Below, piece after piece: positions 7,494-43,220 of a stretch of DNA of 64,000 nucleotides. How positions within the stretch are numbered: position 1 is the first letter of the stretch; every line of letters starts with the position of its first letter. Below the pieces are notes generated by a model. The model saw only the letters and a program-made list of their open reading frames with translations. It was not told the DNA's origin and did no database searches. The position numbers and the translations under genes were made by a program. Source of the DNA: an uncultured bacterium (GTDB taxonomy: Bacteria; Fidelibacterota; Marinisomatia; Marinisomatales; JACNKV01); assembly GCA_964422145.1 (NCBI GenBank), contig CAYQZV010000002.1, positions 150,817 through 214,816 on the forward strand, read 5' to 3'.

Positions 7494-7495
7494 AT

Positions 7496-26087: not shown

Positions 26088-26089
26088 CT

Positions 26090-27292: not shown

Positions 27293-27682
27293 TCTTGGCT
27301 CTTCACCTTCCCGGGGATGCTTTAAGTTTATATTTTAGTCTGTATTTAAACAAAGATTCTCTCGAAATAAATCACATTAATCTATTCCTAAGATTTTGAA
27401 CCCTTACAACAACATTATTTCTAAAGTATTTATGTATTCATGACCAAAATAGAAGAAACCAGTGACTGAATCAGATTATGGTAAAAGGGCATATGTTTGC
27501 CCATTATCATCTTATCGTTCATTGAAAAGACAGCTTCTAAAAACAGAACTCAATTACTTTGGACCAATTTTTAGCCAGAATTTATAGCAATAAATATATT
27601 TGGGTCTTAGCGTTACAACAGATGGGTTAAGCAGCAAAAATTCTTGTGAAATAGTCCACTTAAGTGATTTGCTAGTTTTTCA

Positions 27683-28261
27683 TTATTCCATTAACCTAAA
27701 CCAGTCTCTTACGGTTAATTTTAGCCTGACGATTTCGTCCTCCGCTAATGGACTACAATGGGCAATTGGGCCCCTTAAAAGATTTAGACTATTCATCACT
27801 CTATTGAAACCTTTCTGGCTATTAAATAAGTCACCAAATTTATCCCAATTTTTTCTAACTATTTCTCCTAGTTCACCAAAGGTTGTGTAATCAAGCTCGT
27901 CATCTGATCTTTGTGTAAAGGCTGAATCTACTTCCCTTTTTATATTGTCTATTACGTTTTTTCTAATATGGCTTGGTATATCAACAATATCCCACCAGTT
28001 GTCACTAATTTCAGATTTTAATTTTTCATTTATTATGTTTCTTATTGACACTTCTAAACAATAGAAAAGTTCATAGTGAACTGCCATTTCTCTGGCTTCT
28101 GCTCGTATAGCATGTTGGAACTGTGGGTAATAGTCCTCATCTTTATCTTTTTCTGGATCATAATCACGACCTAATTCAATCTTAAGATTCTCCTCTATAT
28201 TATCTAAAGCTCGTTCAGCCATTTGGTTAGACATTGCAAATAGTTTTATTTTATCTTCCAT
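27683..28261 (-). CDS. Swt1-like HEPN domain protein (putative RNase)
   Basis: 192 aa. Rx4H motif R163-GPIA-H168 within LNLLRGPIAHCSPL. Upstream landmarks LEVSIRNIINEKL, DNWW and DYTTFGELGEIVRKNWDKF match my memory of PF18731. Confidence 0.75.
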   Translation of the reverse strand: MEDKIKLFAMSNQMAERALDNIEENLKIELGRDYDPEKDKDEDYYPQFQHAIRAEAREMAVHYELFYCLEVSIRNIINEKLKSEISDNWWDIVDIPSHIRKNVIDNIKREVDSAFTQRSDDELDYTTFGELGEIVRKNWDKFGDLFNSQKGFNRVMNSLNLLRGPIAHCSPLAEDEIVRLKLTVRDWFRLME

Positions 28262-28263
28262 GA

Positions 28264-28893
28264 TTATTTCTTCAGTAGATTTTCACGGAGACTTTTAAAA
28301 ATAGCACTAAATACAGCCACATCATCAGTTTTGGGTAAAACTAAATTGATTGTGTATGAAAGATTTAATTTCAACTCACCCTCTTGACCAGTATTCCCTG
28401 AAACCTCGGGTTGATTGGGTGTTGCCGGAGTCTTTAATTCCCCTTCAACTGGTTTTGTTTTGAAATCGGCAAATGATTTTAAAGCTTTAAAGGTCCCGTA
28501 GATTGCCCGTATAGTTTTATTACCTTTTTCAAGACCAGTCATTTCAACAATAAGACCTTCAAGGTCGCTTTTTTTTAAGCTATGTGCATACTCATTTCTT
28601 GAATATATATCAGCATATGCATTTTTTATTGCACATGCCATAGCAGCCTTGGATACTTTTTCATTTGTGTTTCTAAACTGTTTATAGAGTTCAGTTGGTG
28701 TTCCATCTGTACCTAACAAACCTAACTTTTTGGCTAATGGAATAAATGCTTTTGCACCTCCACCTGGAAAGCCTAATTCCGTAGCTATATAATCTTGAGT
28801 AAACCTATCTGGGGTAGCAGCAACCTTAATCTTGTCTAATATCTTCGATATTACGCCAGTTGCATTCATAAATGCGGGATAATTCTTTGCCAT
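28264..28893 (-). CDS. DUF5343-like protein (partner of the HEPN protein)
   Basis: 209 aa. The N-terminus NATGVISKILDKIKVAATPDRFTQDYIATELGFPGGGAKAFIPLAKKLGLLGTDGTPTELYKQFRN resembles the DUF5343 consensus as I recall it. There is a 2-nt gap to the HEPN gene. Confidence 0.55.
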   Translation of the reverse strand: MAKNYPAFMNATGVISKILDKIKVAATPDRFTQDYIATELGFPGGGAKAFIPLAKKLGLLGTDGTPTELYKQFRNTNEKVSKAAMACAIKNAYADIYSRNEYAHSLKKSDLEGLIVEMTGLEKGNKTIRAIYGTFKALKSFADFKTKPVEGELKTPATPNQPEVSGNTGQEGELKLNLSYTINLVLPKTDDVAVFSAIFKSLRENLLKK

Positions 28894-28936
28894 GCCTATC
28901 TCCTATATTCTTTGTAATTATTTTTGCCAACCAACA

Positions 28937-28962
28937 GCAGGGGATGTATATACACCCCCTGC
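28937..28962 (-). terminator. hairpin downstream of the T9SS-cargo gene (weak terminator candidate)
   Basis: GCAGGGG/CCCCTGC stem 14 nt past the stop. The T-run on the minus strand is poor. Confidence 0.3.
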
Positions 28963-28975
28963 CTTGATTCTTCTA

Positions 28976-31900
28976 TTATTTCAGCAGTACCAGTTTCTTG
29001 GTTTCAACAAAGCCACCTGACTTCATTCGGAATAAGTACATTCCGGATGGAACACGGTCACCGTTTTGATTCGTTCCGTTCCACATCAGTTTATATCTGC
29101 CTGCCGGAGTGAACCCGCTAACCAATTCAGCTACGACACGCCCGGATAAATCATATATCGTAAGTGTTATGTAACTATCTGCCGGTACGTCATACTCAAT
29201 CGTTGTTGTCGGGTTGAACGGGTTCGGGTAATTTTGACGTAATGCAAATTCAGTAGGGAGAGCAGTAGTTTCATCTGATTCTTTCCAAATCGCTCCAGGA
29301 ATATGTCTATATGTATGTACTTGGTTTGAATATTCGAAAGGCTGATTACTTAGATTCACCGCTCTGACCTGATAATTAACACGTTGATGTTCGCCAGTGC
29401 CCGGATCAACTTTTGTCACCTTGTATGTTAATCTTCCGTCCGGTTCTTCATCAATCTGCGAAATAGTAAAATCACCATCTTCATATGACCCGGTATTTTC
29501 GGTATCTATTATCACATTTTCAGAATTTGGACCCACAAACTCTCTCCATATCTCATGATGCTGATAATGATCAAAAGGATCAAACTCCCATGATAATGTC
29601 GGATGAGTACCAACTTCACCTGAAATGGACAGTAGTGTCGGCACCATTAATTGATCATAATAATATGCACCAATATCTGCTCTTGTAAGATCGGGATCTA
29701 AAGGAGAAGCTGGGTTTCCGGCATTAATACAGGGGCTGCTGGGTTGAAGGTGAAAATCATAGGTGCTCGGGTCTACAAAAAGCGGATCATCTGTTTGATT
29801 TCCAACCAAATTTATAGAATCAAAGTACTCCTCACTTAAATCGCCGCAGTAATATAGATTTGAATAACTGAGGTCTAATATAAAATCGGTATGATGATCT
29901 AAGCCAGTAATCAAATTATCGACATCCAATATTGTATTTACAATATTTAGATGAATATCCGACGAGTGATATATACTGGAACTAACAAAATTACCAGTAT
30001 TCACCAAGGTATTGTTTGTACTGTTTATTGTTAAATCAACATTAATAAGATCAGGATAACAATAACTAACCATACCTTCAGAGATATTATTAAACACGCA
30101 ATGATCAATATTAATATTAACATTTCCCTCATGACCCATTGAAAGTCCTTTTTCAGTATTTGAAATTGTGGAGTTACTAACATTAACGTTGCGGTCAACC
30201 TTTAACGTGGAGTTGACAAACTCAGAACCATCCATCGAGATTAAATGATCAACGGTGATTTTGAATCCGGTTGTATTTACTATCTCAGTAGGACCGCTGA
30301 ACCTTATGGTGATATCCCTGGGGACATTAAGATAAGTTCGTTCTGTATTATCACCTATTGTGAAGCTGGCTCCAGTGAATAAAAGATCATTTAAAAACCC
30401 GCCCATTATAGTACCGCCCGGGATAGTGACATCATAAACATCCCAGAACTCAATCGTGCCGCCGGCGCTGATATCTACCTCACTCAAAACGCCTTCAAGA
30501 TGAGCATTGTCTCCGGTAATAGCCACTTGATGGTAATATTCAAAATCTTGGTACCCTTCGCCCGGATCATATGTCAGATACAAATCATCAACTAAATAAT
30601 CAACATTCGGATCACTTACAACATCGCCTACAATTGTCATCGTATTATTGTTGATCGAAAAATACGGTTCAAAATCAACATGAAATTCATTGTATTCATA
30701 CCGAAGGCTGCCGTTTGCAACCGTAATGTTTTGGTAATAATCCGCTGCTATTACAACATCAGATGAAATTGATGATATATATGTATCAGGCTGATTTATA
30801 TTTGCGATTGTGCATATCCCACTGACAACCTGCCATCTTTTGAAAACTTGGTAAGTACCATCTCCGTTTTCAATAAATGGAGGTGAACTCATTCCAAGAT
30901 ATTCATCATTCTCAGACAAGGTAACATTGGGATCACCCGTTGAAACATTATAATACGCCGCTTCAACACCGGCACTACCAGATAAAAATACTACGTCAGT
31001 TTCTCTTGCTGTTGTTGTGGTATTACCGCCACCAAAATCGACTTGATCACCTACCCACTCTGCGAATACATTAAACCCTTCTGTATCAGTATTAAGAATT
31101 GTAGAGGTACGCAAAGAGTATATAAGATAACCTGGGTTAAAATTTACATTCTGATTCAAGAAAATGTTATAGAATTCAACGATTGATATCCAGTCCTCAC
31201 CTGTTTGACTCCCATCATCACGAACATACCAAGGGTCTTGAATTTCAGGACTGATTTCTGCTCCTATTGCTGTAATAGAAATTTCATGTTGTTCTTCAAA
31301 CCAAGCTGATAAACCGTCATTAAAATACATCTGTTCCATTTGAAACTGTTCAGTCGTTAATCGAAAATCAAGATCATTTGTCCAAGTAATCTGTTTTTCA
31401 TTATCTATTACTTCACTATGTGTTGTTGCAATATAGCTGTCATTTAGCCTTGCAAATAGTATAGAGGGAGATGGTTGATTAAGGTGAGTCAATTCTGGTG
31501 TGTCAATATTATATAACGAAAGTGTACCTGAAAGAAATCCATCCGGATCGGATGTTGATTTGTTTGATAATACAATTTCTTCATTTAGATTAACAGTAAT
31601 AAACAAAGCATCATCCGTTATGTTTAATTCAGGAATATCATCTCGGAAAAAATACGGATTCAGTTGAGGGTAAAACTCAACTAAATTAACTAATAATAAT
31701 TCTGAATAATGCTCTCCAAGGTTAAACGTGACCGTACTCTCTATTGGTAACCAATTAGGCCAAACATTAACAGTTAAACCAACTGTTATATTATCAAGGA
31801 CAATAAATGCATCGCCGGATTCAATGTCCTTTTCAATGGATGGCTCTCCCGATATATCAATCATTAAGTCCTTTGAGTGTGAAAACCCAAAATTATTATA

Positions 31901-32191
31901 GGCAATATTGAATTCTGCATATGCCGTAGCATCTAAACTCAAATTAATTGTATTAGTTGCTCCGATCAAATCAACAGTGCCAGAGTTAATTTTTATCTGG
32001 TAATTTATATCACTAATTGTCGGGTCTGGATGCCATTCACCGTAATTCAACGATTTAGTGTTTACCATAACATTTAATAACTCTTGCAAGGTTTGAGTTT
32101 CGTCCAATCGAAATGAAAATGAATTTTGAGCTTTTAGCGGGAACAATATGAGTAATATTGTAATAAATATTGTGTTTAATGTGTTTTTCAT
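28976..32191 (-). CDS. large secreted protein with T9SS C-terminal sorting domain and beta-helix-like region
   Basis: Signal peptide MKNTLNTIFITILLILFPLKAQ. The C-terminus NYPNPFNPTTTIEYDV...LTIYDLSGRVVAELV...GMYLFRMKSGGFVETKKLVLLK is the Por_Secre_tail type. DPLFVDPSTYDFHLQPSSPCINAG is typical of the end of right-handed beta-helix proteins. Confidence 0.85.
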   Translation of the reverse strand: MKNTLNTIFITILLILFPLKAQNSFSFRLDETQTLQELLNVMVNTKSLNYGEWHPDPTISDINYQIKINSGTVDLIGATNTINLSLDATAYAEFNIAYNNFGFSHSKDLMIDISGEPSIEKDIESGDAFIVLDNITVGLTVNVWPNWLPIESTVTFNLGEHYSELLLVNLVEFYPQLNPYFFRDDIPELNITDDALFITVNLNEEIVLSNKSTSDPDGFLSGTLSLYNIDTPELTHLNQPSPSILFARLNDSYIATTHSEVIDNEKQITWTNDLDFRLTTEQFQMEQMYFNDGLSAWFEEQHEISITAIGAEISPEIQDPWYVRDDGSQTGEDWISIVEFYNIFLNQNVNFNPGYLIYSLRTSTILNTDTEGFNVFAEWVGDQVDFGGGNTTTTARETDVVFLSGSAGVEAAYYNVSTGDPNVTLSENDEYLGMSSPPFIENGDGTYQVFKRWQVVSGICTIANINQPDTYISSISSDVVIAADYYQNITVANGSLRYEYNEFHVDFEPYFSINNNTMTIVGDVVSDPNVDYLVDDLYLTYDPGEGYQDFEYYHQVAITGDNAHLEGVLSEVDISAGGTIEFWDVYDVTIPGGTIMGGFLNDLLFTGASFTIGDNTERTYLNVPRDITIRFSGPTEIVNTTGFKITVDHLISMDGSEFVNSTLKVDRNVNVSNSTISNTEKGLSMGHEGNVNINIDHCVFNNISEGMVSYCYPDLINVDLTINSTNNTLVNTGNFVSSSIYHSSDIHLNIVNTILDVDNLITGLDHHTDFILDLSYSNLYYCGDLSEEYFDSINLVGNQTDDPLFVDPSTYDFHLQPSSPCINAGNPASPLDPDLTRADIGAYYYDQLMVPTLLSISGEVGTHPTLSWEFDPFDHYQHHEIWREFVGPNSENVIIDTENTGSYEDGDFTISQIDEEPDGRLTYKVTKVDPGTGEHQRVNYQVRAVNLSNQPFEYSNQVHTYRHIPGAIWKESDETTALPTEFALRQNYPNPFNPTTTIEYDVPADSYITLTIYDLSGRVVAELVSGFTPAGRYKLMWNGTNQNGDRVPSGMYLFRMKSGGFVETKKLVLLK

Positions 32192-32209
32192 TATATTCTC
32201 TCTTTCTGA

Positions 32210-33118
32210 CTACATAGTTTGGGTAACGACCATTGGGTTCCACCCCGAATCGCCTAGGTTATTAAAAACATAGTAAACGGCAAACCAACCATATTCAGAT
32301 CCAAATAACACTTTACATCTATATTGACCGCTTGGAATATTATTGCCCCATGCCATACCAATTCCATTTGACCATTCATCAGGGGACAATGATATATTAA
32401 CATTCTCATTTTCACTGCTTTGTCCCCATACATTATATATACCTATATACAATACATCAGTTGAAACATTTGAATTAAAACGAAGTGAATAATTCCCGTT
32501 AGATTCATACCACTGACCATCTATATCGGGTGGATTCCCCTCAATGTCAACAATTAATGAAAATTGTAGTAAATCAGTAAGGGCTTCCCATGTGAATGTA
32601 ATATTATTAACCGTTAAATCCACGAAATCAGGTATTGATGCATTACAACCTTCCAACAATGAATTGGGATATACTGTTAATTCCAGTCCTTCATACTCTG
32701 CTATGATAATATCTTTTATCCATTGAGGTCCATCCATGGAATCTATTTGTGCAGGGATACCTTCTAGATAACTTATAATACCACTTATAGATAATTCCCC
32801 CTCGGGAATATTTAGAGGTAAAATAAAAGGGTAATCAAACTGAATTGGGGTTCCCCCTATTACCGCGTTTGCATATACGGTGAAGCTGATGTTTACAACA
32901 TTTGACTCAATATCTATATTAGGATTCCACACATATATATCATAATCATTGCCATCATGATTACCTATTGGGTGTGGCAGCACTTCTGTTCTAAGTAAAG
33001 TATTGAGTGCTTCTTCCGGTTGTTCAAAATAGATGCTAATTGAATAATTATCTGCAAAACTCATGGAAATTAGAATTATTCCAATAGCTATCAATTTTGT
33101 CTTAATAAACTGTATCAT
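32210..33118 (-). CDS. secreted hypothetical protein
   Basis: 302 aa. N-terminal signal-like segment MIQFIKTKLIAIGIILISMSFA. 18-nt gap to the T9SS-cargo gene. Confidence 0.6.
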   Translation of the reverse strand: MIQFIKTKLIAIGIILISMSFADNYSISIYFEQPEEALNTLLRTEVLPHPIGNHDGNDYDIYVWNPNIDIESNVVNISFTVYANAVIGGTPIQFDYPFILPLNIPEGELSISGIISYLEGIPAQIDSMDGPQWIKDIIIAEYEGLELTVYPNSLLEGCNASIPDFVDLTVNNITFTWEALTDLLQFSLIVDIEGNPPDIDGQWYESNGNYSLRFNSNVSTDVLYIGIYNVWGQSSENENVNISLSPDEWSNGIGMAWGNNIPSGQYRCKVLFGSEYGWFAVYYVFNNLGDSGWNPMVVTQTM

Positions 33119-33216
33119 TAATATCTCCTGTTTTTTTCTGTTTGTATTGATTATAACCCGATACAGGAAGTATATTTCACTAGGAATACTTCTTGATATC
33201 AGGTTGTATTCATATC

Positions 33217-33256
33217 CAGCCCCAATAATTGTTCTAAAGCTAATTTATTGGGGCTG
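33217..33256 (-). terminator. 12-bp perfect hairpin downstream of the beta-propeller lipoprotein gene
   Basis: CAGCCCCAATAA / TTATTGGGGCTG, 36 nt past the stop at 33292. There is no clear T-run. Confidence 0.45.
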
Positions 33257-33291
33257 CTCTTATATGAATTCTTTCTTAATTATCCAAAACC

Positions 33292-34620
33292 CTACCTTCT
33301 TCCAATCGCTATCATCCCTCCTGGGATAGTGTTAAAATGTCCTGTGCTCACAATCATATCTCCTTTGTAATGTGCCCTTGTAAATAATGTATTTAATGTT
33401 CCATCGTATAATTCCTCATTAAAATCCCAAGTAGCTCCATTATAATGCACATACATTCCACCACCGCCCTTCATAAAAATATCATTCAAACCCTTTATGC
33501 ATAATGAGTTGTATTCATAATTGTTTATTACGCGGTCTATCGACGATTCACGGGTTAAGTAATTATATTTCCAAAGCCCTTGTCTCGTTACAAAATATGC
33601 TGTATCACTATAGACATATACGGATGAAAAAGCACCCAAGTCTGTATCGTTAGTGGGATATGTCTTTTCACAATAATAAAGTGTTTCAACAACCCCGTCA
33701 TGAATTTGATAAGCTACAGAGTAAGCTGGATCGAAGAAATCTCTTCCTATAGCAAAAACATATTCTCCATCAGGCGTACCGTGCATCTCTAACATTCTTA
33801 CTTCATGCTCAGTCTCCATCAATGTGAATTCATTGCCGTTATAATGTACCATACCCCCATCAATCCCTGTGAAATACATATTATCTGAAGAAGATCCCCA
33901 CAGTGTTAAAGCACTCACATCTAATCCCATGTTATGTAAATGATAAAGTGTCCACTCATTTCCATCCCAGTGAACAGGATAACCGCTTTGCACAAACCAA
34001 ATATCATTTTCAGCAAAGTACTGTATCTCTTGTACGCGGGCTACGTTCCTTATCCTTAGTATCTCCCACTCATTTCCGTTCCAATGGGCTGCATTAAAAT
34101 CTTCTTTTCCTGTCCCATTAAAACTTGAATCTGGGTCGTCCATAACTATCTTCCCCACAACCCAAATGTCGTTCTCATTCACAATTTCGGCGTCGGTAAA
34201 AAAACTACCATAAAGTCCTATTGTATCTATCTCCCATACAAAATTGTGGCTGGTTGTATCATTGGTAAATACTGTCAATAAATTACTTGTGTCTTTTCGT
34301 GTTGCTCCATCCATCCAAAATGCCTGATAATTGTATAGTGTGTTTGGACTTAATCCACCATCATGAATTATTGTGTCTCGCTGAAATACAGTACTTGTCA
34401 TAATCAGGGAGTCATTACGTATAAGGTCAAAGGTCCATTCACCGATTGTATCTTCGACGGCTATTTTTAGATCCGTTCCAACACAGCTGGTATTAAACCC
34501 CTCAAGCGATATGGTTGTAATTCGGGGGATTTCATCGTCAATCGGCGGGTCGGGGCAGGCGAAAAAGGTAAGACTACAAAGGATAAAAACCGCAATAAGG
34601 TAAAGAAACTTTTTGAACAT
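33292..34620 (-). CDS. lipoprotein with repeated HWxGNEW blades (beta-propeller-like)
   Basis: The start is moved to MFKKFLYLIAVFILCSLTFFAC (lipobox-like). Recurring motifs HWNGNEW, HWDGNEW, HYNGNEF and HYNGATW occur at roughly 45-60 aa spacing. Confidence 0.6.
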   Translation of the reverse strand: MFKKFLYLIAVFILCSLTFFACPDPPIDDEIPRITTISLEGFNTSCVGTDLKIAVEDTIGEWTFDLIRNDSLIMTSTVFQRDTIIHDGGLSPNTLYNYQAFWMDGATRKDTSNLLTVFTNDTTSHNFVWEIDTIGLYGSFFTDAEIVNENDIWVVGKIVMDDPDSSFNGTGKEDFNAAHWNGNEWEILRIRNVARVQEIQYFAENDIWFVQSGYPVHWDGNEWTLYHLHNMGLDVSALTLWGSSSDNMYFTGIDGGMVHYNGNEFTLMETEHEVRMLEMHGTPDGEYVFAIGRDFFDPAYSVAYQIHDGVVETLYYCEKTYPTNDTDLGAFSSVYVYSDTAYFVTRQGLWKYNYLTRESSIDRVINNYEYNSLCIKGLNDIFMKGGGGMYVHYNGATWDFNEELYDGTLNTLFTRAHYKGDMIVSTGHFNTIPGGMIAIGRR

Positions 34621-34742
34621 CAAGTTTAGTTTAAAATACATGATCAGCCTTTTTGTTTTGGAGAATCTACTCAAAAAATTCCTTTATAATGTTAAGTAAT
34701 TTGGGGTTCATTGGTTTTGATAGTAGTTTTTAATTTTAGTAT

Positions 34743-35150
34743 TTACTTCTTATTTCGTTTTTTATAAATATGTGTTTCTATAAGCCAAGGTTCAATACCC
34801 GTATTAGTACACCACTTGATTTGGCCTTTTATAATCTGGAAATGACTATAACAACCCTTCTTTTGCCATACTGAGGGAGATAAAGTAGGAACGCCTTTTG
34901 ATGATAGCTCTAATTTCCAATGGGGTCCATTATTTTTTTTCAATGGTAGCGATATCACACTATTACACCCGCAAGGGCAAATAAAAACAGACCAATATGA
35001 TTGATCGTTATAAATAACTATTACAAAATTTCTTTTCTTCAGTGTTTCAGTATCGGGTAACTTATCCACAATAACTGAATTGAAGTAATACTTTCTCTTA
35101 ACTGCAAAGAATCCTTTTCCAATTAGAAATGGTCTTTTAATAAATGTCAT
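34743..35150 (-). CDS. small Cys/Ser/His-rich protein of the Ubl operon (DUF6527-like)
   Basis: 135 aa from MTFIKRPF (146 aa from the upstream ATG at 35183, which would overlap the E1 gene). Motifs CPCGC, PTLSPSVW, GCYSHF and KWC. I recall that DUF6527 has a conserved SPS motif. Confidence 0.55.
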   Translation of the reverse strand: MTFIKRPFLIGKGFFAVKRKYYFNSVIVDKLPDTETLKKRNFVIVIYNDQSYWSVFICPCGCNSVISLPLKKNNGPHWKLELSSKGVPTLSPSVWQKKGCYSHFQIIKGQIKWCTNTGIEPWLIETHIYKKRNKK

Positions 35151-35157
35151 AAATATT

Positions 35158-36618
35158 TTAAATATCTGTCGGTATCTTACCATATTGTGGGGTACTTAAT
35201 CGATACTCCCCCTCCCCTAGTTTAAAAATACTATTCTCTTTACAATAAATACAATCAGAAACCTCTAACGGATTGTTACTATGTATATTTAAATGGATAA
35301 AATCAATCCAGATATTATCCTGCCTTAGATCAGTTGGAATAACTCTATAATTAGAAATTAAATTCATAAAAGTTGCTACTGCAATATTAGCTGTACATCT
35401 AGTAAAAGCTCCAATTCCAGGTGATTGAACATTCGCTCCAATAATATAATAATCTTTTTTTAAGATTGAGGGATCTAGATCAGCCAATTCAGGTCTATCT
35501 TTTAATTTTTGTTCATCAGATATTTTTTGATCATTAATAACATTCTGACATCGTAAACAGGAACCAAATTCAGGTAGAATACAACTGATGCGACCTTTTT
35601 GAGTTTTTAAGTATGGGGTGCCTTCTTGATCTTCCTCAACATTTCCCGACAGTCCAACGTCAATATATACTTGTGAATAATAATATAATGCTTGATTTAA
35701 TAAATCTCTTCCAGCTACGTCATCAGTGCATCCAAAAATAACATCAGCGCTGGATAGTGCATCTATTGCTTTTTCTGATTCATGTATATAATTTGGGATT
35801 GCTACAACCTTATTTTGTAGTCCTAAACTAAGTATATGTTTCTCCATAACTGTAGCTTTATTGTTACCTATATCTTCTTTTGTAAAACCACTCACTCTAT
35901 TCATGTTGGTTTCATCCAATTTATCCCCATCTATTAATATTAATTCACCAACCCCAGTTCTTGCGAGTAAATCAGCAATTGGAGACCCTGTCCCACCAAG
36001 GCCAACAATAGCAACTCTTAATGATTGAATCTTTATATTAAACGGTTTACCAAAGGCAATTTCTTGTCTATTTAGGTTTATTGTTGAAGTGTCGGGAACT
36101 TGACACCCATAAAGATCAAGCTTTTCTTTTAGAATAGATATGTGTCTAACATTTATTGCTTTTTCGGGATTATATCCCTGCCTAATCCTACCTATCCATT
36201 GATTATTAGAAAGAATTAGTGTAATTAAAAAAGAAGATGGTGTATTACAACCTACTAATCCCTGAAGTATATTTCTTTCATTTATATTGTCCATTTCAGA
36301 AAAAAACAATTGTTTTTTTGGATGGTTATGAACAAATCCTAACTCTAATTGTTCTTGTTCACAACGTAAATAAATTTCTGGAAAGTTTTTCATATTGATG
36401 GTAAACTGATTTTCAAAGCAACCAATTACCCAATCCCCATCCATCCTAATTACTTCGACTGATAAAAACCGATCTGAAATGGGAAGTCCATTGATTTCTC
36501 GTGCTAATCTTCTAAATAAAACAATAGCACCTCTTTCATAACCCTTCGGATGCATTGTGAGCCAAGTTTTCAGCTCTTGTTCATGAGTACCTAGTATTGT
36601 TATTCTATGTCCATTCAT
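35158..36618 (-). CDS. JAB/JAMM peptidase - E1 (ThiF/MoeB-like adenylyltransferase) fusion
   Basis: E28 plus H97-N-H99-x7-S107-x2-D110 is a full JAMM motif. GLGGTG (206-211), DGDKLDETNMNR (230-241), GCTDD (297-300) and CxxC pairs C354/C357 and C456/C459 indicate an E1-like Rossmann/zinc fold. Confidence 0.88.
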   Translation of the reverse strand: MNGHRITILGTHEQELKTWLTMHPKGYERGAIVLFRRLAREINGLPISDRFLSVEVIRMDGDWVIGCFENQFTINMKNFPEIYLRCEQEQLELGFVHNHPKKQLFFSEMDNINERNILQGLVGCNTPSSFLITLILSNNQWIGRIRQGYNPEKAINVRHISILKEKLDLYGCQVPDTSTINLNRQEIAFGKPFNIKIQSLRVAIVGLGGTGSPIADLLARTGVGELILIDGDKLDETNMNRVSGFTKEDIGNNKATVMEKHILSLGLQNKVVAIPNYIHESEKAIDALSSADVIFGCTDDVAGRDLLNQALYYYSQVYIDVGLSGNVEEDQEGTPYLKTQKGRISCILPEFGSCLRCQNVINDQKISDEQKLKDRPELADLDPSILKKDYYIIGANVQSPGIGAFTRCTANIAVATFMNLISNYRVIPTDLRQDNIWIDFIHLNIHSNNPLEVSDCIYCKENSIFKLGEGEYRLSTPQYGKIPTDI

Positions 36619-37031
36619 TTTTGTGCATCAGGTTTTTTTAAAGCCCATTCAATTCGGCATAATATTTTTTCAATATTATCAATCTTTGGGTTCCATGTTT
36701 GATGTTTAAAATGTCTTGACCAACGGCAAAACTCTCTTCCATTATATATCCTAGAATCCCCCTGTCCAATATTAAAAGCAGAAGGTATTTGTTTTTTATC
36801 AGCTCTTGAAAGTGGGGGGTGAACCCAAAACATGTCATTCCCGCTTGTATTATAGTTGGTAGGGATAACTACTAGCACATCAACGTAATCAATGGGTTCA
36901 TTTGCATATTCGTAGAGACCGGATTTTAATGGATAATCCTTTATTACCAAGAACCTATTTTTGACATCCTCTTCGTACTCAAGTCCAGACGCAGCAAGGA
37001 TTTCGTAATCTTCATCAAATAATAACGCCAT
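36615..37031 (-). CDS. prokaryotic E2/UBC-like protein (Prok-E2_E-like)
   Basis: 138 aa. DMFWVHPP (an HPN-like flap), followed ~30 aa later by FCRWSRH. ATGA overlap with the E1 gene and TAATG overlap with the Ubl gene. Confidence 0.7.
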   Translation of the reverse strand: MALLFDEDYEILAASGLEYEEDVKNRFLVIKDYPLKSGLYEYANEPIDYVDVLVVIPTNYNTSGNDMFWVHPPLSRADKKQIPSAFNIGQGDSRIYNGREFCRWSRHFKHQTWNPKIDNIEKILCRIEWALKKPDAQK

Positions 37032-37276
37032 TATTGCCCAGGAGTTGAATCAGCTACTTGATAGTAAAATTTTTCTATTCCTGATGGGTTTAAATCAATT
37101 TGATGATCATTTTCAACAAGCTCACCCGGTTTCCCGGGTCGTTTTACAAACAAATCCATATTATCCGGAATTCCAGGGGGTATTTGTCTAACTTCAGCAC
37201 CAGTAATAAACTGATTACTCCAGACATGAACAGTTTCCTCAATTTTGAATTTATATGTTTTAGTTTTATCTTTCAT
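37031..37276 (-). CDS. single-domain ubiquitin-like beta-grasp protein (Multi_ubiq-type)
   Basis: 81 aa. YKFKIEETVHVWSNQFITGAEVRQI...LFVKRPGKPGELVENDHQIDL resembles the multiubiquitin domain pattern. The C-terminus ...STPGQ has a penultimate Gly. Confidence 0.65.
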   Translation of the reverse strand: MKDKTKTYKFKIEETVHVWSNQFITGAEVRQIPPGIPDNMDLFVKRPGKPGELVENDHQIDLNPSGIEKFYYQVADSTPGQ

Positions 37277-37323
37277 TTTATTTTCCTTTTGTATTGATTT
37301 ATTTGAACATTCTTCATTTCATT

Positions 37324-37411
37324 CATTTTTTTCCGTAAATTAAAAAAGCGATTAAACCTCGGCTACCGGGGTATCATAACAATAAATCTCTTCTTCAACC
37401 CTATTCTTTTT
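37324..37411. repeat. copy A of an ~80-nt intergenic repeated element
   Basis: Shares an identical 20-mer GTAAATTAAAAAAGCGATTA (37335-37354) with copy B. This is followed by a GC hairpin, ATCATAACAATAAATC, a ..CAACCC tail and a T-run. Confidence 0.8.
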
Positions 37412-37627
37412 TTATTTCAATAACAATTTCAGAATATCTTTCACTTCATCGAGTGTTAATACTTTATCTTCAAATGCTTCCAGAATTTCATCCATGATTT
37501 CGTCAACTTTATCCGGTGTAAACTCTTTTAAAACATCGACGACTTCTTGCTTTGTGATTTCTCCGTCTAAAGAAATACCAATTATTTTATAGGCAGTTCT
37601 AAGTAATGTGAGTGGGTTCATCTCCAT
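37412..37627 (-). CDS. small acidic helical protein with degenerate EF-hand-like loop
   Basis: 71 aa. SLDGEITKQEV resembles the second half of an EF-hand loop. Very acidic. Confidence 0.45.
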   Translation of the reverse strand: MEMNPLTLLRTAYKIIGISLDGEITKQEVVDVLKEFTPDKVDEIMDEILEAFEDKVLTLDEVKDILKLLLK

Positions 37628-37636
37628 TCTCCTTTT

Positions 37637-38014
37637 CTAGTGTATGTTATTCATAATGGCGTAAACGCTGAGTGTGATCACACCGGTTATAAATCCGATT
37701 ACTGACCCAAATGGAATAAGTAATAGAATATTTGACAACCATGAACTTTGGTCATGATTTTGATCACTATCAAAATCATTGAATGATAAGTAGTACCATA
37801 TCACCGAAGTAATGATTGAAATGATAAAAGCTATTAACGACCAAATAATCAAATAGCTGTAAACAGGATCGGGATACAATTTCTCAACATAAACGACAAT
37901 GATGAGAATCGCGCCGGTGCTGAGCGATGTAATATACCGTAGGAATGACTGCTCCTGTTCGTATGAAGCGATATCGCGTTGAACGGATTCAGATTTATGA
38001 CACATGGCAATCAT
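37637..38014 (-). CDS. small 3-TM membrane protein
   Basis: Start uncertain (M at 38014 or 38005; the ORF is open to 38080). Three hydrophobic helices. Overlaps the stop of the upstream 68-aa gene. Confidence 0.5.
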   Translation of the reverse strand: MIAMCHKSESVQRDIASYEQEQSFLRYITSLSTGAILIIVVYVEKLYPDPVYSYLIIWSLIAFIISIITSVIWYYLSFNDFDSDQNHDQSSWLSNILLLIPFGSVIGFITGVITLSVYAIMNNIH

Positions 38015-38201
38015 TTGAACAATAAAAACAACCGTTCGATTGTGTATAATATTCTTTGGCTTTCTTAACTGCATCCTCACAGTTTGTGAAGTAACCTAAT
38101 AATATTCTGTTTTCTAACTTGGGGAGGTAATCACAATCTCCAGTGTGAACTTCATGATCACCATTTGACTGAGCATTCGTATTAACATAATATAATGTCA
38201 T
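37995..38201 (-). CDS. small Cys/His-rich protein (YVNxNAQSNGDHEVH family, function unknown)
   Basis: 68 aa. MTLYYVNTNAQSNGDHEVHTGDCDYLP...NGCFYCSNDCH matches a widespread hypothetical family that I recognise but cannot name. Confidence 0.6.
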   Translation of the reverse strand: MTLYYVNTNAQSNGDHEVHTGDCDYLPKLENRILLGYFTNCEDAVKKAKEYYTQSNGCFYCSNDCHVS

Positions 38202-38330
38202 CTCATTCTCCTTTTATTTGAATTTGGGAGAGGTCATGACAAAGATTAAAAGTCAGGTGTAGTTCATTCGTATACAAGGTCATGGCCTCCCCCAATGGTT
38301 TTGTCGTTTCTGAACGCTGTGTATTTCGAT

Positions 38331-38456
38331 CATATTTTTTTTGTAAATTAAAAAAGCGATTAGCCCCGGTTTAGGGGCATCATAACAGTAAATCGCTGCT
38401 ACAACCCCTTACTTTCTGCTGCTAATCTTGAGAGTAAGGGGTTTCCTATTTTTTTT
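38331..38456. repeat. copy B of the intergenic repeated element, with an extra 11-bp hairpin
   Basis: Identical 20-mer at 38343-38362, GCCCC..GGGGC hairpin (38363-38378), and ATCATAACAGTAAATC. An added AACCCCTTACT/AGTAAGGGGTT hairpin (38403-38443) is followed by T8. Confidence 0.8.
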
Positions 38457-38468
38457 AAAGATCCTTAT

Positions 38469-39965
38469 CTAATACGGACCCTCCAGTTTTTTTAACTTCA
38501 TCCAGACACTCGGATAACTGAGCTGCAAAATATCCTCAAGACGTTTTTTCTGAAAGCCGTAATGCTGGTACAAAAATCGGAACATATCCTTTTCAAACCG
38601 CTGATTAGCGTCTTTCCATCCCAACTCAGTGAGATTGGTTTCAATGTAAGATATCAGTGATTCTAATTTGTATTCCGGCTGGTACGGCTTGGATGAATCC
38701 TTAATATTCGGGATCACAAAGCCTTGTTTGGATAATCTCGTCCTCATGGCAAAATATGTGGATTCTTTCATCTTCATGGCGGTTAAAAACGCCTTGAGAT
38801 CATTCGACTTCCGGATATTCACCATGACGTAATTATACTGAAAAAGGGTGTGGATATCCCGCCATGTCTTCCCCAACGCAAACTGGAACATGTTCTCTTT
38901 AGGTTGTTCTTTGATCTTATTAAAAGCGATTTGTTCAACATATTTTGTATAAGTCTCCATCGCTTTTTTCCGGTCAGCGGAATAAGAAAAACCCATTTTT
39001 AATTGTTCTTGAGAATGGTCATACCCGAGTTTGTAATACGACAACGCCTGCCGGTGCTGATCCAGTTTTTCATGGCATTTTCCAAGATAATAGCATTGAA
39101 TAGGGAGTTGTTGGATAACACCATTGATCTTTGCTGTATTATACGCTTCTAAAAACTCCTCTGCCGCTGTGGCGTAATCAGACATCAGATAATAGGCATA
39201 GGCAATATTCTCGATCATTAGCGTTCGGGTTGTATGGCTTTCTGTATCATCCTTGTATTTTCGTAAATAATCAATTCCTTGTGATAATTGTCCTTGTCGT
39301 ATAAAGAGATACCCCATAGAGTTATGGATGTTAAATTCGGTATGTTTCATTCCAAGTTTTTGGGACTCTTTTAGAGATAACTGAAAATAATACTTAGCAT
39401 TTTTAAAATCATTTTTTTCCCTAAAAATAATTCCTACTCTAAAAAGACCTATAACATATATTGAGTATTTATCTACACTTTTTAGTTTATCTACATAAGT
39501 GATCATATCTAACAAATCATTATCATCTCTATTCGAAACATTAAGATATTGTTTATACTTAACAAGTGATATCATTTTTTTTGATTTTGCATATTGTAAA
39601 GCCCTTCTTACACAGAAAACCATGTTGTCATTATCACCAAATACTGAAAATAATTGATTATATTCAGAATAATAAAAAGCTATTACATCAGGATGTAAGA
39701 ATTTTCCCTTTGTATCAATTATAGATTTTGCTTGGTTGAAATAACTAAAAGATCGTTTCATATTTCCTTCCAGCAAAAATCGTTTCCCCAACCCTGTTAA
39801 TATCAGTACACGAGTGTCTATGTCATCAATATCATCTAATTGAAACTTACCGCTTAGAGCTCTCAATCCATCAAGATCATATAAACCCGCTTCATTAAAA
39901 TAATCTACGTAGTTATTATAATCAGGTATTCTTAATGATGAAATACGTGTAATATTTTTATCCAT
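38469..39965 (-). CDS. TPR-repeat protein with C-terminal HTH-like segments (putative regulator)
   Basis: The start is moved to MDKNITR (GGGGGAG SD upstream). There are multiple TPR-like A/Y/F-patterned helices. C-terminal KESTYFAMRTRLSKQG and LSYPSVWMKLKKL resemble Fis-type HTHs. Confidence 0.5.
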   Translation of the reverse strand: MDKNITRISSLRIPDYNNYVDYFNEAGLYDLDGLRALSGKFQLDDIDDIDTRVLILTGLGKRFLLEGNMKRSFSYFNQAKSIIDTKGKFLHPDVIAFYYSEYNQLFSVFGDNDNMVFCVRRALQYAKSKKMISLVKYKQYLNVSNRDDNDLLDMITYVDKLKSVDKYSIYVIGLFRVGIIFREKNDFKNAKYYFQLSLKESQKLGMKHTEFNIHNSMGYLFIRQGQLSQGIDYLRKYKDDTESHTTRTLMIENIAYAYYLMSDYATAAEEFLEAYNTAKINGVIQQLPIQCYYLGKCHEKLDQHRQALSYYKLGYDHSQEQLKMGFSYSADRKKAMETYTKYVEQIAFNKIKEQPKENMFQFALGKTWRDIHTLFQYNYVMVNIRKSNDLKAFLTAMKMKESTYFAMRTRLSKQGFVIPNIKDSSKPYQPEYKLESLISYIETNLTELGWKDANQRFEKDMFRFLYQHYGFQKKRLEDILQLSYPSVWMKLKKLEGPY

Positions 39966-40494
39966 TTTCTCCCCCATCACCTGGGAAAGTGCATTTCACA
40001 TCCGATTCAATCGTACACGTTCCGTTCAAACCGGTTTTTATGGCTGTCGTTTCAACGGTTGTGTCTGATGTGACTTCAACCCACACTCCGCTTGCATTCA
40101 GGTAATAACAATCTACCGGGTCGGTGATCGTTACAGTAGTCGGTGCGTCAAAAGTAGCTTTTGTATTGGCATATAACGTGGTTTTATAGGTTTCGTCATA
40201 GACTTGATCCGTCCAAGAACCGCTGGGTAATACTTCACTCCCGGAGGATAAATACACATTATCCGGGTCGGTTTCATGTCCGTACACTGTTCCGTAAGGC
40301 GGGTCTTCTTCGATCTGGGCTGCGGATTCATCCGTCGTTTTTGCCAGAACAGAAGGTTGGATAAACTCAGGAACTGATTCGCTTACCGTGATTCCGTTGT
40401 ACGTGAGTTCTTGAGGGGGCTGGGTGAGGTTGGATTCACATCCTGCAAGGATAAAGATGATCGTTAAAATGATGAGAGAAACTCTGAATTTCAT
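39958..40494 (-). CDS. lipoprotein, function unknown
   Basis: The start is moved to MKFRVSLIILTIIFILAGC (lipobox LAGC). Thr/Asp-rich mature part. Confidence 0.65.
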   Translation of the reverse strand: MKFRVSLIILTIIFILAGCESNLTQPPQELTYNGITVSESVPEFIQPSVLAKTTDESAAQIEEDPPYGTVYGHETDPDNVYLSSGSEVLPSGSWTDQVYDETYKTTLYANTKATFDAPTTVTITDPVDCYYLNASGVWVEVTSDTTVETTAIKTGLNGTCTIESDVKCTFPGDGGENG

Positions 40495-40685
40495 AAGAAC
40501 TCCTGATCGTAATATTGTGAATAAACTTATTTTAACCTGCCATAGTTTAAACACCCATATTTCTTAATGTCAAGTATTAATATATAATAATATTAAATAT
40601 TTTATTCATTTATTTTAATATATTTCTAATTCTATGATTATATAATGGAAAGTGCGGGTAAGTTCATATTCTAAAGAAAAAAAAC

Positions 40686-40716
40686 AAAAACCCTCGTCGT
40701 GAAACGAGGGTTTTTA
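40686..40716. terminator. orphan bidirectional terminator-like hairpin
   Basis: CCCTCGT/ACGAGGG stem flanked by A10 and T5. No annotated gene ends here on either strand. Confidence 0.5.
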
Positions 40717-40995
40717 GGGTTGGGTTTATTTTGTGTGGTGTTTGCGTTACCGTAACCATAACTCCCTTTTTTGCATATTTGATAACTCTTTTGCTTTATC
40801 TAAATTGGCCAAAATACTCTCATCCTAAATTACCCTATTCTGTCCATCAGGCTCTGAACCGGTACACGTTTTTTTATGTTGATAATTCCTTGAAATTCAT
40901 CTGAAATAACACGAATTTATTACCCGTTGTATTCTCTCTAAAACTGAGAGAAATATGACCAAGATCAGAAATAGTGAATTACCCATTGAAAGGTA

Positions 40996-41559
40996 TTGAT
41001 TGCCTTGAACGACACAACCAAAGAACAAATCTTAAATATCTGGCCTGAAATCAACTGGATAAACGATAAAGATATCCGGGAGAAAACTCTGAATGCGTGG
41101 GTGTGGGCAGTGAGTCAATCCACTCTTACGATCGATGACCTTGAAACCATCCCGTTTTCGCTGCTCATCAAAGACTGCAGTATTTCTTTTTTAAATCATA
41201 AAAGAACCTGCATACATCTAGCCGTAGATATTGCCAAGCGGATGAAAACAAATTTCGGTGATGAAATCCATATTGACATGGACGTGCTGATTTCCGGGGC
41301 AATTTTGATTGATATCGGAAAACTGCTCGAGTACGAAATTGTTGATAGAGAGCTCAGAACCAGCGAATACGGTAAAACCGTTCGGCATCCGTTTAGCGGA
41401 GCAGCAATCGCTGCCCGGTTTGATCTCCCCCCTGAAATTCAGCATATCATCGCTACCCATTCCAAAGAAGGCGACTTGGAGAAACGGACAACGGAATCTA
41501 TCATTGTGCACCATGCCGATTTTGTATCGTTTGAACCGTTTAAATCATCAAAAATTTGA
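40996..41559 (+). CDS. HD-superfamily domain protein (degenerate HD motif)
   Basis: TTG start. H..., ILIDIGK (Ile where HD proteins have His), HPFSGA, THSKEGD and HHAD. Confidence 0.6.
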   Translation: MIALNDTTKEQILNIWPEINWINDKDIREKTLNAWVWAVSQSTLTIDDLETIPFSLLIKDCSISFLNHKRTCIHLAVDIAKRMKTNFGDEIHIDMDVLISGAILIDIGKLLEYEIVDRELRTSEYGKTVRHPFSGAAIAARFDLPPEIQHIIATHSKEGDLEKRTTESIIVHHADFVSFEPFKSSKI

Positions 41560-41568
41560 GGAGTCATT

Positions 41569-41787
41569 TTGAATAAATTAAAGCCATATAAATTATCAGG
41601 GTATCAAAGGTTCTTTTTCTTCATATCCGGTTCTATTATAACCTTAGGAATCTATCTCACCGGATGGACAGACGTTCATTGGTTTTTGTATATCCCTCCA
41701 ATTTTCTTTATAGGTGCTTCTTTAAATGGATATTGCACAGGATTAATTTTTTCAAAAATATTATTCGATAAACTGAAGAAGAAATAA
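41569..41787 (+). CDS. small 2-TM membrane protein (DUF2892/YgaP-like)
   Basis: 72 aa, TTG start, two TM helices, and a GYCTG motif near the end. Confidence 0.45.
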   Translation: MNKLKPYKLSGYQRFFFFISGSIITLGIYLTGWTDVHWFLYIPPIFFIGASLNGYCTGLIFSKILFDKLKKK

Positions 41788-43220
41788 TGGATAAATCCAT
41801 CGCTCGGCAGATGTCTGAATTTGCCGTAAACCTGAAATATGAGGATCTTCCAAAAGAAGTCGTTTATGAAGTAAAGCGATTTTTATACGATTCTCTTGGC
41901 TGTGCTTTCGGAAGCATGAACACCCAAGATGTTCAGATCATACTGGATATTTACCGTGAAATGGGCGGAGCTGAAGAATCCACCGTTATCGGATTTGGTG
42001 ACAAAATGCCCACCGTTCATACGGCGCTGATCAATTCGCTGATGATCCGTGCTTTGGATTTTAATGACATTTATTGGAAAGAAGATCCATGCCATCCCAG
42101 TGATCTCATTCCTGCCGCACTGAGTACCGCGGAAAAAATGAATGCATCCATGAAAGACGTCATCGTGGCGATCGTTTTAGCGTACGAATTTGAACAAAGA
42201 CTTTGTCTTTTTGCCAAGCCCGGGATTCGAGAACGAAAATGGCATCATGCAACCTTAACCCAATTTGTCTCTCCCATCGTTGCGGGAAAAATACTTGGGC
42301 TGACCGTTGATGAAATGGTACATGCGATCGGGATTGGCGGATGTCATAATTACACCATCGGCTGCCCGACGGCAGGGAAGTTAACCATGATGAAAAATAC
42401 GGTCGATCCGATGGCCGTCCAAAGCGGTGTGTTTGCAGCCTTAATGGCTCAGAAAGGATTTACCGGAACCGAAAAAGTCTTCGAAGGGAAAGAAGGATTC
42501 ATGGATACCTTAATCGGCTGGGATGCTAAAACAAAAGCGTTAAAACCAACCGAAATGGAAGGACGCGACGGTGCGTCTCCTTGGTCATGGGATATAAATG
42601 CATTGTTGAGCGGACTTGGTGAAAATTACAAAATTCTCGAATGCAGTATGAAAGCCTTCCCGACCGAAGCATTAACCCATACACATATTTCGTGTGTTTT
42701 GAAGGCGATGAAAAACAATAATCTGAATTACTCTGATATCAAAGAAGTTAAAGTTACAACATTCGCTCAGGCGTACGATATCTTATTTGATCCGGTGAAA
42801 TACCGACCGAAATCACGGGAAACCGCAGACCACTCTCTTCCTTATTGTCTGGCGGCGGCGATTGTGGATAAAAAAATCACACCGGATTCATTTACAGATA
42901 AAAAACTCAACGATCCCCGCATCCTTGAAGTAATCGACAAAATCAAAGGTGAGCCATCGCTTGAATTTGAAAAAATGTTTCCTGAAAAACAGCCGGCAAA
43001 AGTCGTCATCATTACAAACGGCAGTGATACGTACTCAGAGTATTTGGAATATCCAAAAGGCGATCCAAGAGAACCTATGAGCATTGAAGAATTAAGTGAT
43101 AAATTCAACGCACTTTCTAAGGATCATTTTACTGAAAACAGGTTAAAACAACTGAAAAAACTGATATTTCAATGTGAGAATGTGACCGCACGAGAATTCA
43201 TGAATCATTTCGATAAATAA
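41787..43220 (+). CDS. MmgE/PrpD family protein (2-methylcitrate dehydratase family)
   Basis: 477 aa. N-terminus FAVNLKYEDLPKEVVYEVKRFLYDSLGCAFG and the overall layout are typical of PrpD-family proteins. Confidence 0.85.
   Translation: MDKSIARQMSEFAVNLKYEDLPKEVVYEVKRFLYDSLGCAFGSMNTQDVQIILDIYREMGGAEESTVIGFGDKMPTVHTALINSLMIRALDFNDIYWKEDPCHPSDLIPAALSTAEKMNASMKDVIVAIVLAYEFEQRLCLFAKPGIRERKWHHATLTQFVSPIVAGKILGLTVDEMVHAIGIGGCHNYTIGCPTAGKLTMMKNTVDPMAVQSGVFAALMAQKGFTGTEKVFEGKEGFMDTLIGWDAKTKALKPTEMEGRDGASPWSWDINALLSGLGENYKILECSMKAFPTEALTHTHISCVLKAMKNNNLNYSDIKEVKVTTFAQAYDILFDPVKYRPKSRETADHSLPYCLAAAIVDKKITPDSFTDKKLNDPRILEVIDKIKGEPSLEFEKMFPEKQPAKVVIITNGSDTYSEYLEYPKGDPREPMSIEELSDKFNALSKDHFTENRLKQLKKLIFQCENVTAREFMNHFDK

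Follow-up and report, generated by a model that had tools for sequence, protein, structure and literature searches.

A very probable Type I Bub operon with separate Ubl and E2 genes in an uncultured Marinisomatales bacterium

To our knowledge, the Bub pathways of bacteria are the only known ubiquitin-like conjugation systems that lack catalytic cysteines. The subject here is a four-gene operon on contig CAYQZV010000002.1 of an uncultured bacterium from the Marinisomatales. The stretch of this contig that was analysed is 64,000 nucleotides long and is called the window; all positions are counted from its first letter. The operon occupies positions 34743-37276 of the minus strand. It is very likely a complete and apparently functional Type I Bub operon, in which the ubiquitin-like protein (Ubl) and the E2 have genes of their own.

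Bub stands for bacterial ubiquitination-like. It is the name that Ye, Gong, Chambers and Corbett gave to what was earlier called the '6E/DUF6527' class, with 6E.1 becoming Type I and 6E.2 becoming Type II (bioRxiv 10.1101/2024.11.21.623953). Type I is made up of BubA (the Ubl), BubB (the E2), BubCD (a JAB/JAMM peptidase joined N-terminally to an E1 of the homodimeric type) and BubE (a DUF6527 protein), and structures have been solved for BubAB, BubCD and BubE from Citrobacter sp. RHBSTW-00271 (PDB 9ea4, 9ea5, 9ea8, 9eae and 9eav; bioRxiv 10.1101/2024.11.21.623953). In all, 544 Bub operons have been catalogued. The regulators CapW, CapH+CapP or CapK+CapS are frequent upstream of Type I operons, though not universal.

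The Citrobacter system has also been studied biochemically. Mutation showed that its ATP-dependent conjugation needs Y370 of the E1, S333/H335 with D299 of the E2, and the adenylation residue R227. The JAMM site of BubCD (E28, H91, H93 and D104) cuts BubAB, which is a pre-protein, behind the Gly that ends BubA. Conjugates are stripped by BubE, whose Ser/His peptidase activity (S92/H102, with C57/59/61/99) is weak and depends on zinc (bioRxiv 10.1101/2024.11.21.623953). The system is therefore already named, structurally solved and dissected, and the operon in the window is a further example of it. An earlier reading of this DNA, made from its letters alone (the sequence-only reading), had pointed to a 'Bub' class examined only recently. 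This was accurate. Its proposal that the operon is a candidate for a novel or poorly described system was overstated.

The operon, as read from its open reading frames (ORFs), has the following parts, with lengths in amino acids (aa).

37031..37276, minus strand: bubA (Ubl), 81 aa, ending in ...ADSTPGQ
36615..37031, minus strand: bubB (E2), 138 aa, with motifs WVHPP and FCRWSRH
35158..36618, minus strand: bubCD (JAB-E1), 486 aa, two domains
36109..36618, minus strand: bubC part of bubCD, N-terminal JAB/JAMM metallopeptidase domain, residues 1 to ~170
35158..36108, minus strand: bubD part of bubCD, E1 adenylation domain
34743..35183, minus strand: bubE (DUF6527), 146 aa, or 135 aa from the ATG at 35150
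37029..37033, minus strand: bubA/bubB stop/start overlap TAATG, read from the sequence
36615..36618, minus strand: bubB/bubCD start/stop overlap ATGA, read from the sequence
36719-36717 and 36713-36711, minus strand: codons of the predicted catalytic residues Ser105 and His107 of BubB, to which Asp66 is added, by alignment to Citrobacter BubB
34874-34872 and 34844-34842, minus strand: codons of the putative Ser104 and His114 dyad of BubE, spaced as in Citrobacter

The bubA and bubB ORFs overlap by a single nucleotide and lie one frame apart. Between bubCD and bubE there is a 7-nucleotide gap, which turns into a 26-nucleotide overlap if the longer bubE start is used. The four coupled ORFs, their junctions and their motifs are all present as the sequence-only reading described them.

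The proteins of the operon were scanned with Pfam, and alongside it with PADLOC-DB 2.0.0 (2023) and NCBIfam. Of the Pfam families that had been expected for the operon, three were found clearly: PF14462 (Prok-E2_E) in BubB at 3.5e-31, ThiF in the E1 domain at 9e-37, and PF20137 (DUF6527) in BubE at 4.2e-20. The other two, Multi_ubiq in BubA (1.3e-3) and Prok-JAB (0.031), stayed under their gathering scores. No PADLOC (2023) or NCBIfam model matches the Ubl, the E2 or the DUF6527 protein. A PADLOC search had been put forward as a way to recognise the operon; it yields generic E1 matches only.

BubCD holds two sets of motifs. The JAB domain has E28, H97, H99, S107 and D110. The E1 domain has a GLGGTG nucleotide loop, DGDx5NxNR, GCTDD and two CxxC pairs, together with Arg241, Asp299 and Tyr391 (codon 35448-35446) in the crossover loop. 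Among PDB sequences, the best match is Citrobacter BubCD at 4.7e-19. In that alignment H97, H99, S107 and D110 fall on H91, H93, S101 and D104, while R241 falls on R227 and Y391 on Y370.

Here and below, unless otherwise stated, conservation is counted over 120 listed database homologues per protein. Each of the five JAMM residues is kept in at least 119 of the 120. Tyr391 is present in every one, and a cysteine anywhere at positions 359-402 in none. The two CxxC pairs, C354/C357 and C456/C459, are likewise found in 120/120. They resemble what we take to be the structural zinc site of MoeB/ThiF-type enzymes, and probably form such a site.

A family profile of the JAB domain by itself finds nothing significant in the PDB (0.38). 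The structure of the full 486-residue protein was therefore predicted with AlphaFold 2 (AF2), using 51 homologues, and folds were compared by Foldseek. The model has a mean predicted local distance difference test score (pLDDT) of 88.6 and a predicted template modelling score (pTM) of 0.90. Its single low-confidence segment, 387-399, is the crossover loop that bears Y391. All eight Citrobacter BubCD chains rank first in the fold comparison. The best of these, 9ea4, matches over both domains and 487 columns with E 2e-37, template modelling (TM) scores of 0.82/0.89 and 20% identity. ThiF, UBA5, MccB and MoeB cover the E1 half only, with a TM score over the query (TMq) of ~0.4.

Two observations on database entries belong here. 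The JAB-E1 homologues are almost all named 'ThiF family adenylyltransferase', 'thiamine biosynthesis protein ThiF' or 'molybdopterin-synthase adenylyltransferase', which is misleading. One 613-aa protein (P0213) from a Bacteroidota metagenome-assembled genome (MAG) carries ThiF and PF20137 together; it is either an apparent JAB-E1-BubE triple fusion or a merged gene call.

BubB matches Citrobacter BubB at 5e-9 when compared with PDB sequences, with RWSRH on RWSRH and DMF(W/Y)V also aligned. D66, S105 and H107 then correspond to D299, S333 and H335. Both S105 and H107 are kept in 120/120 homologues, and D66 in 117/120. The sequence-only reading had also named Cys102 as a candidate nucleophile. 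It is no such candidate, as the residue is kept in only 101/120. BubB is an E2 of the Prok-E2_E type whose predicted catalytic residues are Ser and His (with Asp), not Cys.

A phmmer search of the PDB with BubA alone gives a Citrobacter multi-ubiquitin protein (9d59) at 4e-9. The family profile finds the same entry at 3.5e-15, E. coli multi-ubiquitin (9cd2) at 1e-11, BilA at 5e-6 and Citrobacter BubA(155-229) at 5e-3. Multi_ubiq is matched by all ten of the BubA family members tested. The AF2 model (pLDDT 81.7) is a single beta-grasp domain. In the fold comparison it comes closest to Citrobacter and E. coli multi-ubiquitin, BilA and BubA (TM 0.72-0.78, with 0.76-0.78 for multi-ubiquitin/BubA; root-mean-square deviation 1.7-2.3 Å), and generic ubiquitin-fold domains rank lower in the list.

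Gly80 of BubA (codon 37039-37037) is invariant among homologues, and one residue follows it, Gln81. How many residues follow this Gly was counted in 120 Ubl representatives. There are none in 5, one in 46, two in 53, three in 1 and six to eight in 15, and the tail sequence is highly variable. This means that 115/120 (96%) have at least one residue past the Gly, so the Ubl is a precursor still in need of C-terminal trimming. Such tails leave work for the JAB domain even without a Ubl-E2 fusion. Gln81 is most likely trimmed by the JAB domain of BubCD.

The family of BubE is labelled 'BubE' in the sequence collection. The protein has a putative C4 zinc site (Cys69, 71, 73 and 111) and a putative Ser104/His114 dyad. 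The spacing, C69-x-C71-x-C73, 31 residues to S104, then S-x6-C111-x2-H114, is identical to that of C57/59/61, S92, C99 and H102 in Citrobacter. These Cys, Ser and His positions are invariant in 13 sequences. At 50% identity, there are 1,299 representatives of BubE-like proteins with E <=1e-3 and 303 with E <=1e-10.

It is uncertain whether the true BubE start gives the 146- or the 135-aa form. Gene callers chose the 135-aa start on two independent metagenome contigs with identical proteins, and the two closest relatives start at the position equivalent to residue 7. Whichever start applies, the N-terminal extension is hydrophobic/basic.

One of the related loci, from Fodinibius sediminis (L004, ~7451-7852), has an in-frame stop in bubE at a Trp that is conserved in all other sequences. 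The downstream frame is intact, including the Ser/Cys/His motif. Recent decay into a pseudogene, an error in sequencing or read-through could each account for this.

The beta-grasp, UBC-like E2, JAB, E1 and DUF6527 assignments of the sequence-only reading were all recovered by profile searches, structure searches or both, and the residues on which the chemistry would depend proved conserved. The best solved-structure matches of the Ubl, the E2 and the JAB-E1 protein are Bub components: multi-ubiquitin/BubA, BubB and BubCD. Put next to Citrobacter Type I Bub, the operon shares the two-domain JAB-E1 fold with its JAMM residues, adenylation Arg and crossover Tyr in a Cys-free loop. It also shares a Prok-E2_E E2 with RWSRH and the DMF(W/Y) Asp, the Cys/Ser/His spacing and hydrophobic N-terminal extension of BubE, and a beta-grasp Ubl of the Multi_ubiq type whose C-terminal Gly is conserved. 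The main difference is the Ubl. Citrobacter has a three-domain Ubl fused to the E2, whereas the window has a separate, single-domain Ubl of 81 aa with a one-residue tail. The window operon also has no adjacent CapW, CapH+CapP or CapK+CapS.

The same four-gene order is present in 11 other genomes from several phyla, with E1 identities of 49-77%, which together with the Pfam matches goes well beyond chance. Bacteroidota, Rhodothermia, Geobacterales and Alphaproteobacteria are represented. By name the relatives are Gaoshiqia, a Porphyromonadaceae MAG, a MAG binned as Tepidanaerobacteraceae, Fodinibius, a Rhodothermia MAG, Geomonas, Geobacter, Geomobilimonas, a Deltaproteobacteria MAG, Lacibacter and Phenylobacterium. 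Gaoshiqia and the Porphyromonadaceae MAG are closest. In all 12 loci Ubl and E2 are separate ORFs with a stop/start overlap, which is TAATG in 8, TGATG in 3 and ATGA in 1. Stand-alone E2 homologues of 134-140 aa form more than 120 clusters, and stand-alone Ubls of 77-97 aa at least 120. Identical proteins also occur in independent metagenome assemblies.

The cassette of the Tepidanaerobacteraceae (Firmicutes) MAG sits on a 4.8-kb contig (L003) and is 75-80% identical to those of Gaoshiqia and Porphyromonadaceae, which are Bacteroidota. This suggests recent horizontal transfer or a mis-binned contig.

The split layout is also present in the published catalogue. Table S1 of the Bub preprint gives separate Ubl and E2 gene identifiers for at least 31 Type I operons, which are entered as 'DUB+E1 fusion' only. 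Examples are those of Mucilaginibacter sp. OK098, Bacteroidetes bacterium GWF2_33_16, Bradyrhizobium spp. and Rhizobium phaseoli, and three of the operons come from Bacteroidetes MAGs (bioRxiv 10.1101/2024.11.21.623953). The text of the preprint states that all Type I operons carry a BubAB fusion, which is at odds with its own Table S1 (bioRxiv 10.1101/2024.11.21.623953). Because that table classes these unfused operons as Type I Bub, the fusion is not a true defining feature of the type. The unfused layout is already catalogued, but neither discussed nor biochemically studied.

These catalogued operons have the same four separate genes for Ubl, E2, JAB-E1 and DUF6527 as the window. Bradyrhizobium, Rhizobium and Bacteroidota are also among the homologues of the window E2. 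Judging by architecture and taxonomy, they would form one sequence clade with it. Where other Type I operons have a fusion, the overlap of stop and start codons probably serves instead to couple the synthesis of Ubl and E2.

A mechanism can be proposed, of which the first step comes from the sequences examined here and steps two to five are carried over by homology from Citrobacter. BubA would start out as an 81-aa precursor; the loss of Gln81, most likely through cleavage by the JAB domain of BubCD, would then expose Gly80. The E1 domain would then adenylate Gly80, using ATP, Arg241 and Asp299. In the third step, Tyr391 on the flexible, Cys-free crossover loop would attack the adenylate, which gives a Ubl~Tyr oxyester. 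The Ubl would next be handed to Ser105 of BubB, assisted by His107 and Asp66, as a Ubl~Ser oxyester. It would finally be moved onto lysines of target proteins. BubE would be a Ser104/His114 peptidase that is stabilised by zinc and has a hydrophobic extension at its N-terminus; it may strip the Ubl from these targets and so restrain the pathway. On the conserved residues, the window operon is thus predicted to carry out ATP-dependent conjugation via oxyester intermediates.

Several points weigh against this account. The chemistry of the window clade is drawn from homology, with high confidence but at ~20% identity to Citrobacter BubCD. The aligned Citrobacter sequence lacks the first CxxC pair, so details may differ. 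Five of the Ubl representatives, including that of the Rhodothermia MAG (locus L005), stop exactly at the Gly. The JAMM residues are intact in L005 as well, and since they are kept where the Ubl already ends at Gly, this suggests that the JAB domain has a role beyond trimming, or that BubE shares in the trimming. Either peptidase, JAB or BubE, could thus do the trimming. PADLOC 2023 does not recognise the system with any of its models. Finally, no Bub operon is known to protect against phage.

The operon lies inside a low-GC stretch, with a guanine plus cytosine (GC) content of 0.32-0.40 in window 27000-41000 as against 0.44-0.48 in the flanks, which carry housekeeping genes. This looks like a variable, horizontally acquired region. 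A tRNA scan found none flanking the island, and there is no integrase among the ORFs scanned. The surroundings are as follows.

26039-27292: thiolase gene, in the flank of the low-GC stretch
27683-28261, minus strand: HEPN_Swt1 protein, adjacent to the DUF5343 gene
28264-28893, minus strand: DUF5343 protein, adjacent to the HEPN_Swt1 gene
28976-32191: 1071-aa protein with a type IX secretion sorting domain, in the low-GC stretch
37412-38201, minus strand: three small ORFs directly upstream of bubA, of 68 aa (Cys/His-rich), 125-147 aa (membrane-like) and 71 aa (acidic)
38469-39980, minus strand: 503-aa TPR protein with a possible C-terminal helix-turn-helix, further upstream of bubA
41787-43220: PrpD gene, in the flank of the low-GC stretch

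The low-GC stretch further contains two proteins without family assignment and one lipoprotein. The TPR protein and the three small ORFs have no family in the Pfam, NCBIfam and PADLOC scans. They accompany the operon in the metagenome contigs L013 and L014 and are absent from all other relatives. A search of the window's neighbour genes against 12 related loci gave 0 matches, which means that there are no conserved accessory genes. In the promoter scan, sigma-70-type sites were no commoner than in shuffled sequence; Bacteroidota promoters lie outside its scope. The terminator scan gave a single weak terminator-like site, on the wrong strand.

The sequence-only reading had placed the operon in a defence-like island of a genome from the Fibrobacterota-Chlorobiota-Bacteroidota (FCB) group. 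An FCB-type host is plausible, given that the closest relatives are Gaoshiqia and the Porphyromonadaceae MAG and that a neighbouring gene codes for a protein with a type IX secretion sorting domain. The island is a mixed case. The DUF5343 and HEPN_Swt1 pair (27683-28893) matches the PADLOC candidate defence system PDC-M34 (A at 3.5e-48, B at 1.2e-37), ~6 kb from the operon in the same island. Against this, secreted-protein genes lie in between, and there is no known Bub regulator: scans of the upstream genes with Pfam, NCBIfam and PADLOC found no CapW, CapH+CapP or CapK+CapS in the window.

A WYL regulator of the CapW/BrxR type lies directly upstream in 5 of the 11 relatives. Others adjoin a type I restriction subunit with a DUF4917/SIR2-like gene, or a MazF toxin. 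For this reason a defence context is better supported for the subfamily than for the window copy, where it is partly supported. By context, the biological role would most likely be anti-phage or stress defence. Viral contigs scanned with the E1 alignment gave distant matches limited to the ThiF domain and no close relative, so there is no evidence for a phage-borne cassette.

A different view of the same operon is that it represents a third, functionally distinct Bub subtype. Its hallmark would be an unfused, short-tailed, single-domain Ubl, and its JAB domain would act in C-terminal trimming and/or as an editing deubiquitinase, rather than splitting a pre-protein. In this genome, expression might also do without the usual DNA-damage regulators and depend instead on the co-oriented genes upstream (the TPR gene and the ORFs of 68, 125 and 71 aa), serving some purpose other than phage defence. 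The argument for an editing or trimming JAB is that its catalytic residues are kept even where the Ubl ends at Gly. The low identity to BubCD, ~20%, the retained E1 zinc site and the stop/start coupling of Ubl and E2 would be further traits of the subtype. On balance this is unlikely.

Type II Bub, as in E. coli ZDHYS365 (BubA, BubBD and BubE), is similar to the window operon in its DUF6527/BubE protein, in its Multi_ubiq Ubl (the match to 9cd2) and in a chemistry of Ser E2 and Tyr E1, which for the window operon is predicted. It differs by fusing E2 to E1 (BubBD) and usually lacking a JAB domain, whereas the E2 in the window is free and the JAB is fused to the E1.

Bil (bacterial ISG15-like) and the Cap2/Cap3 module of Type II cyclic oligonucleotide-based antiphage signalling systems (CBASS) follow the same logic of conjugation with E1, E2, JAB and Ubl, also in a defence context. 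That the operon is one of these is very improbable. PADLOC 'E1-E2' (Cap2) models do match the E1 domain, at up to 4e-18, but over residues ~180 to 320 only. The Ubl profile also finds BilA, and Ubl, E2 and E1 are separate polypeptides, as they are in Bil, which has a separate JAB too and works through cysteine thioesters. The window E1, however, is a single adenylation domain with neither a cysteine domain nor a crossover-loop Cys, and its partner is a Prok-E2_E protein in which Ser and His are invariant but the Cys is not conserved. In Type II CBASS, Cap2 joins E2 to E1 and has a CD-NTase as its substrate; there is no such fusion here, and no CD-NTase was found among the neighbours. The JAB-E1 fusion and the presence of DUF6527 are hallmarks of Bub, and DUF6527 is missing from both Bil and CBASS.

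It is more improbable still that this is a sulfur-carrier system for thiamine or molybdopterin biosynthesis, with ThiS/MoaD and ThiF/MoeB as its parts. The E1 domain matches ThiF and MoeB models and structures, it retains CxxC zinc-ligand pairs like theirs, and the homologues bear their names. NCBIfam scores for ThiF and MoeB are far under the cut-offs, however, such as 79 vs 275 and 62 vs 266, and the two folds fit only the C-terminal half of the model. The E2, the JAB domain and the BubE peptidase would have no role in sulfur transfer, and there are no adjacent thiazole or molybdopterin genes.

Equally hard to believe, and already refuted by the comparisons between loci, is that the split is a decayed or frameshifted BubAB fusion, a pseudogene or assembly error that leaves the operon non-functional as written: two ORFs one frame apart at a 1-nt overlap might look like that, but the same split recurs with overlapping codons in 12/12 loci of different phyla, in the >120 clusters of stand-alone E2s (~138 aa) and the many of stand-alone Ubls, in identical copies from independent assemblies and in the operons of Table S1, and the catalytic residues are all intact.

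The reading as a Type I Bub operon with separate Ubl and E2 genes adds little conceptually to what was known, and for the question of biological role the window copy is no more testable than other copies. The new observations are small: the tail counts of the Ubl precursors, the zinc site that the E1 has kept and the lack of the regulators usually found. Public databases systematically give these E1s a wrong label, that of ThiF/MoeB biosynthetic enzymes, and PADLOC 2023 misses the system. Even so, the unfused Bub subtype has many members, shows high conservation and occurs in several phyla. In nearly all cases its Ubl is synthesised as a precursor, usually with a tail of 1-2 residues, and the residues of the oxyester chemistry are all invariant, despite only ~20% identity to the enzyme that has been studied.

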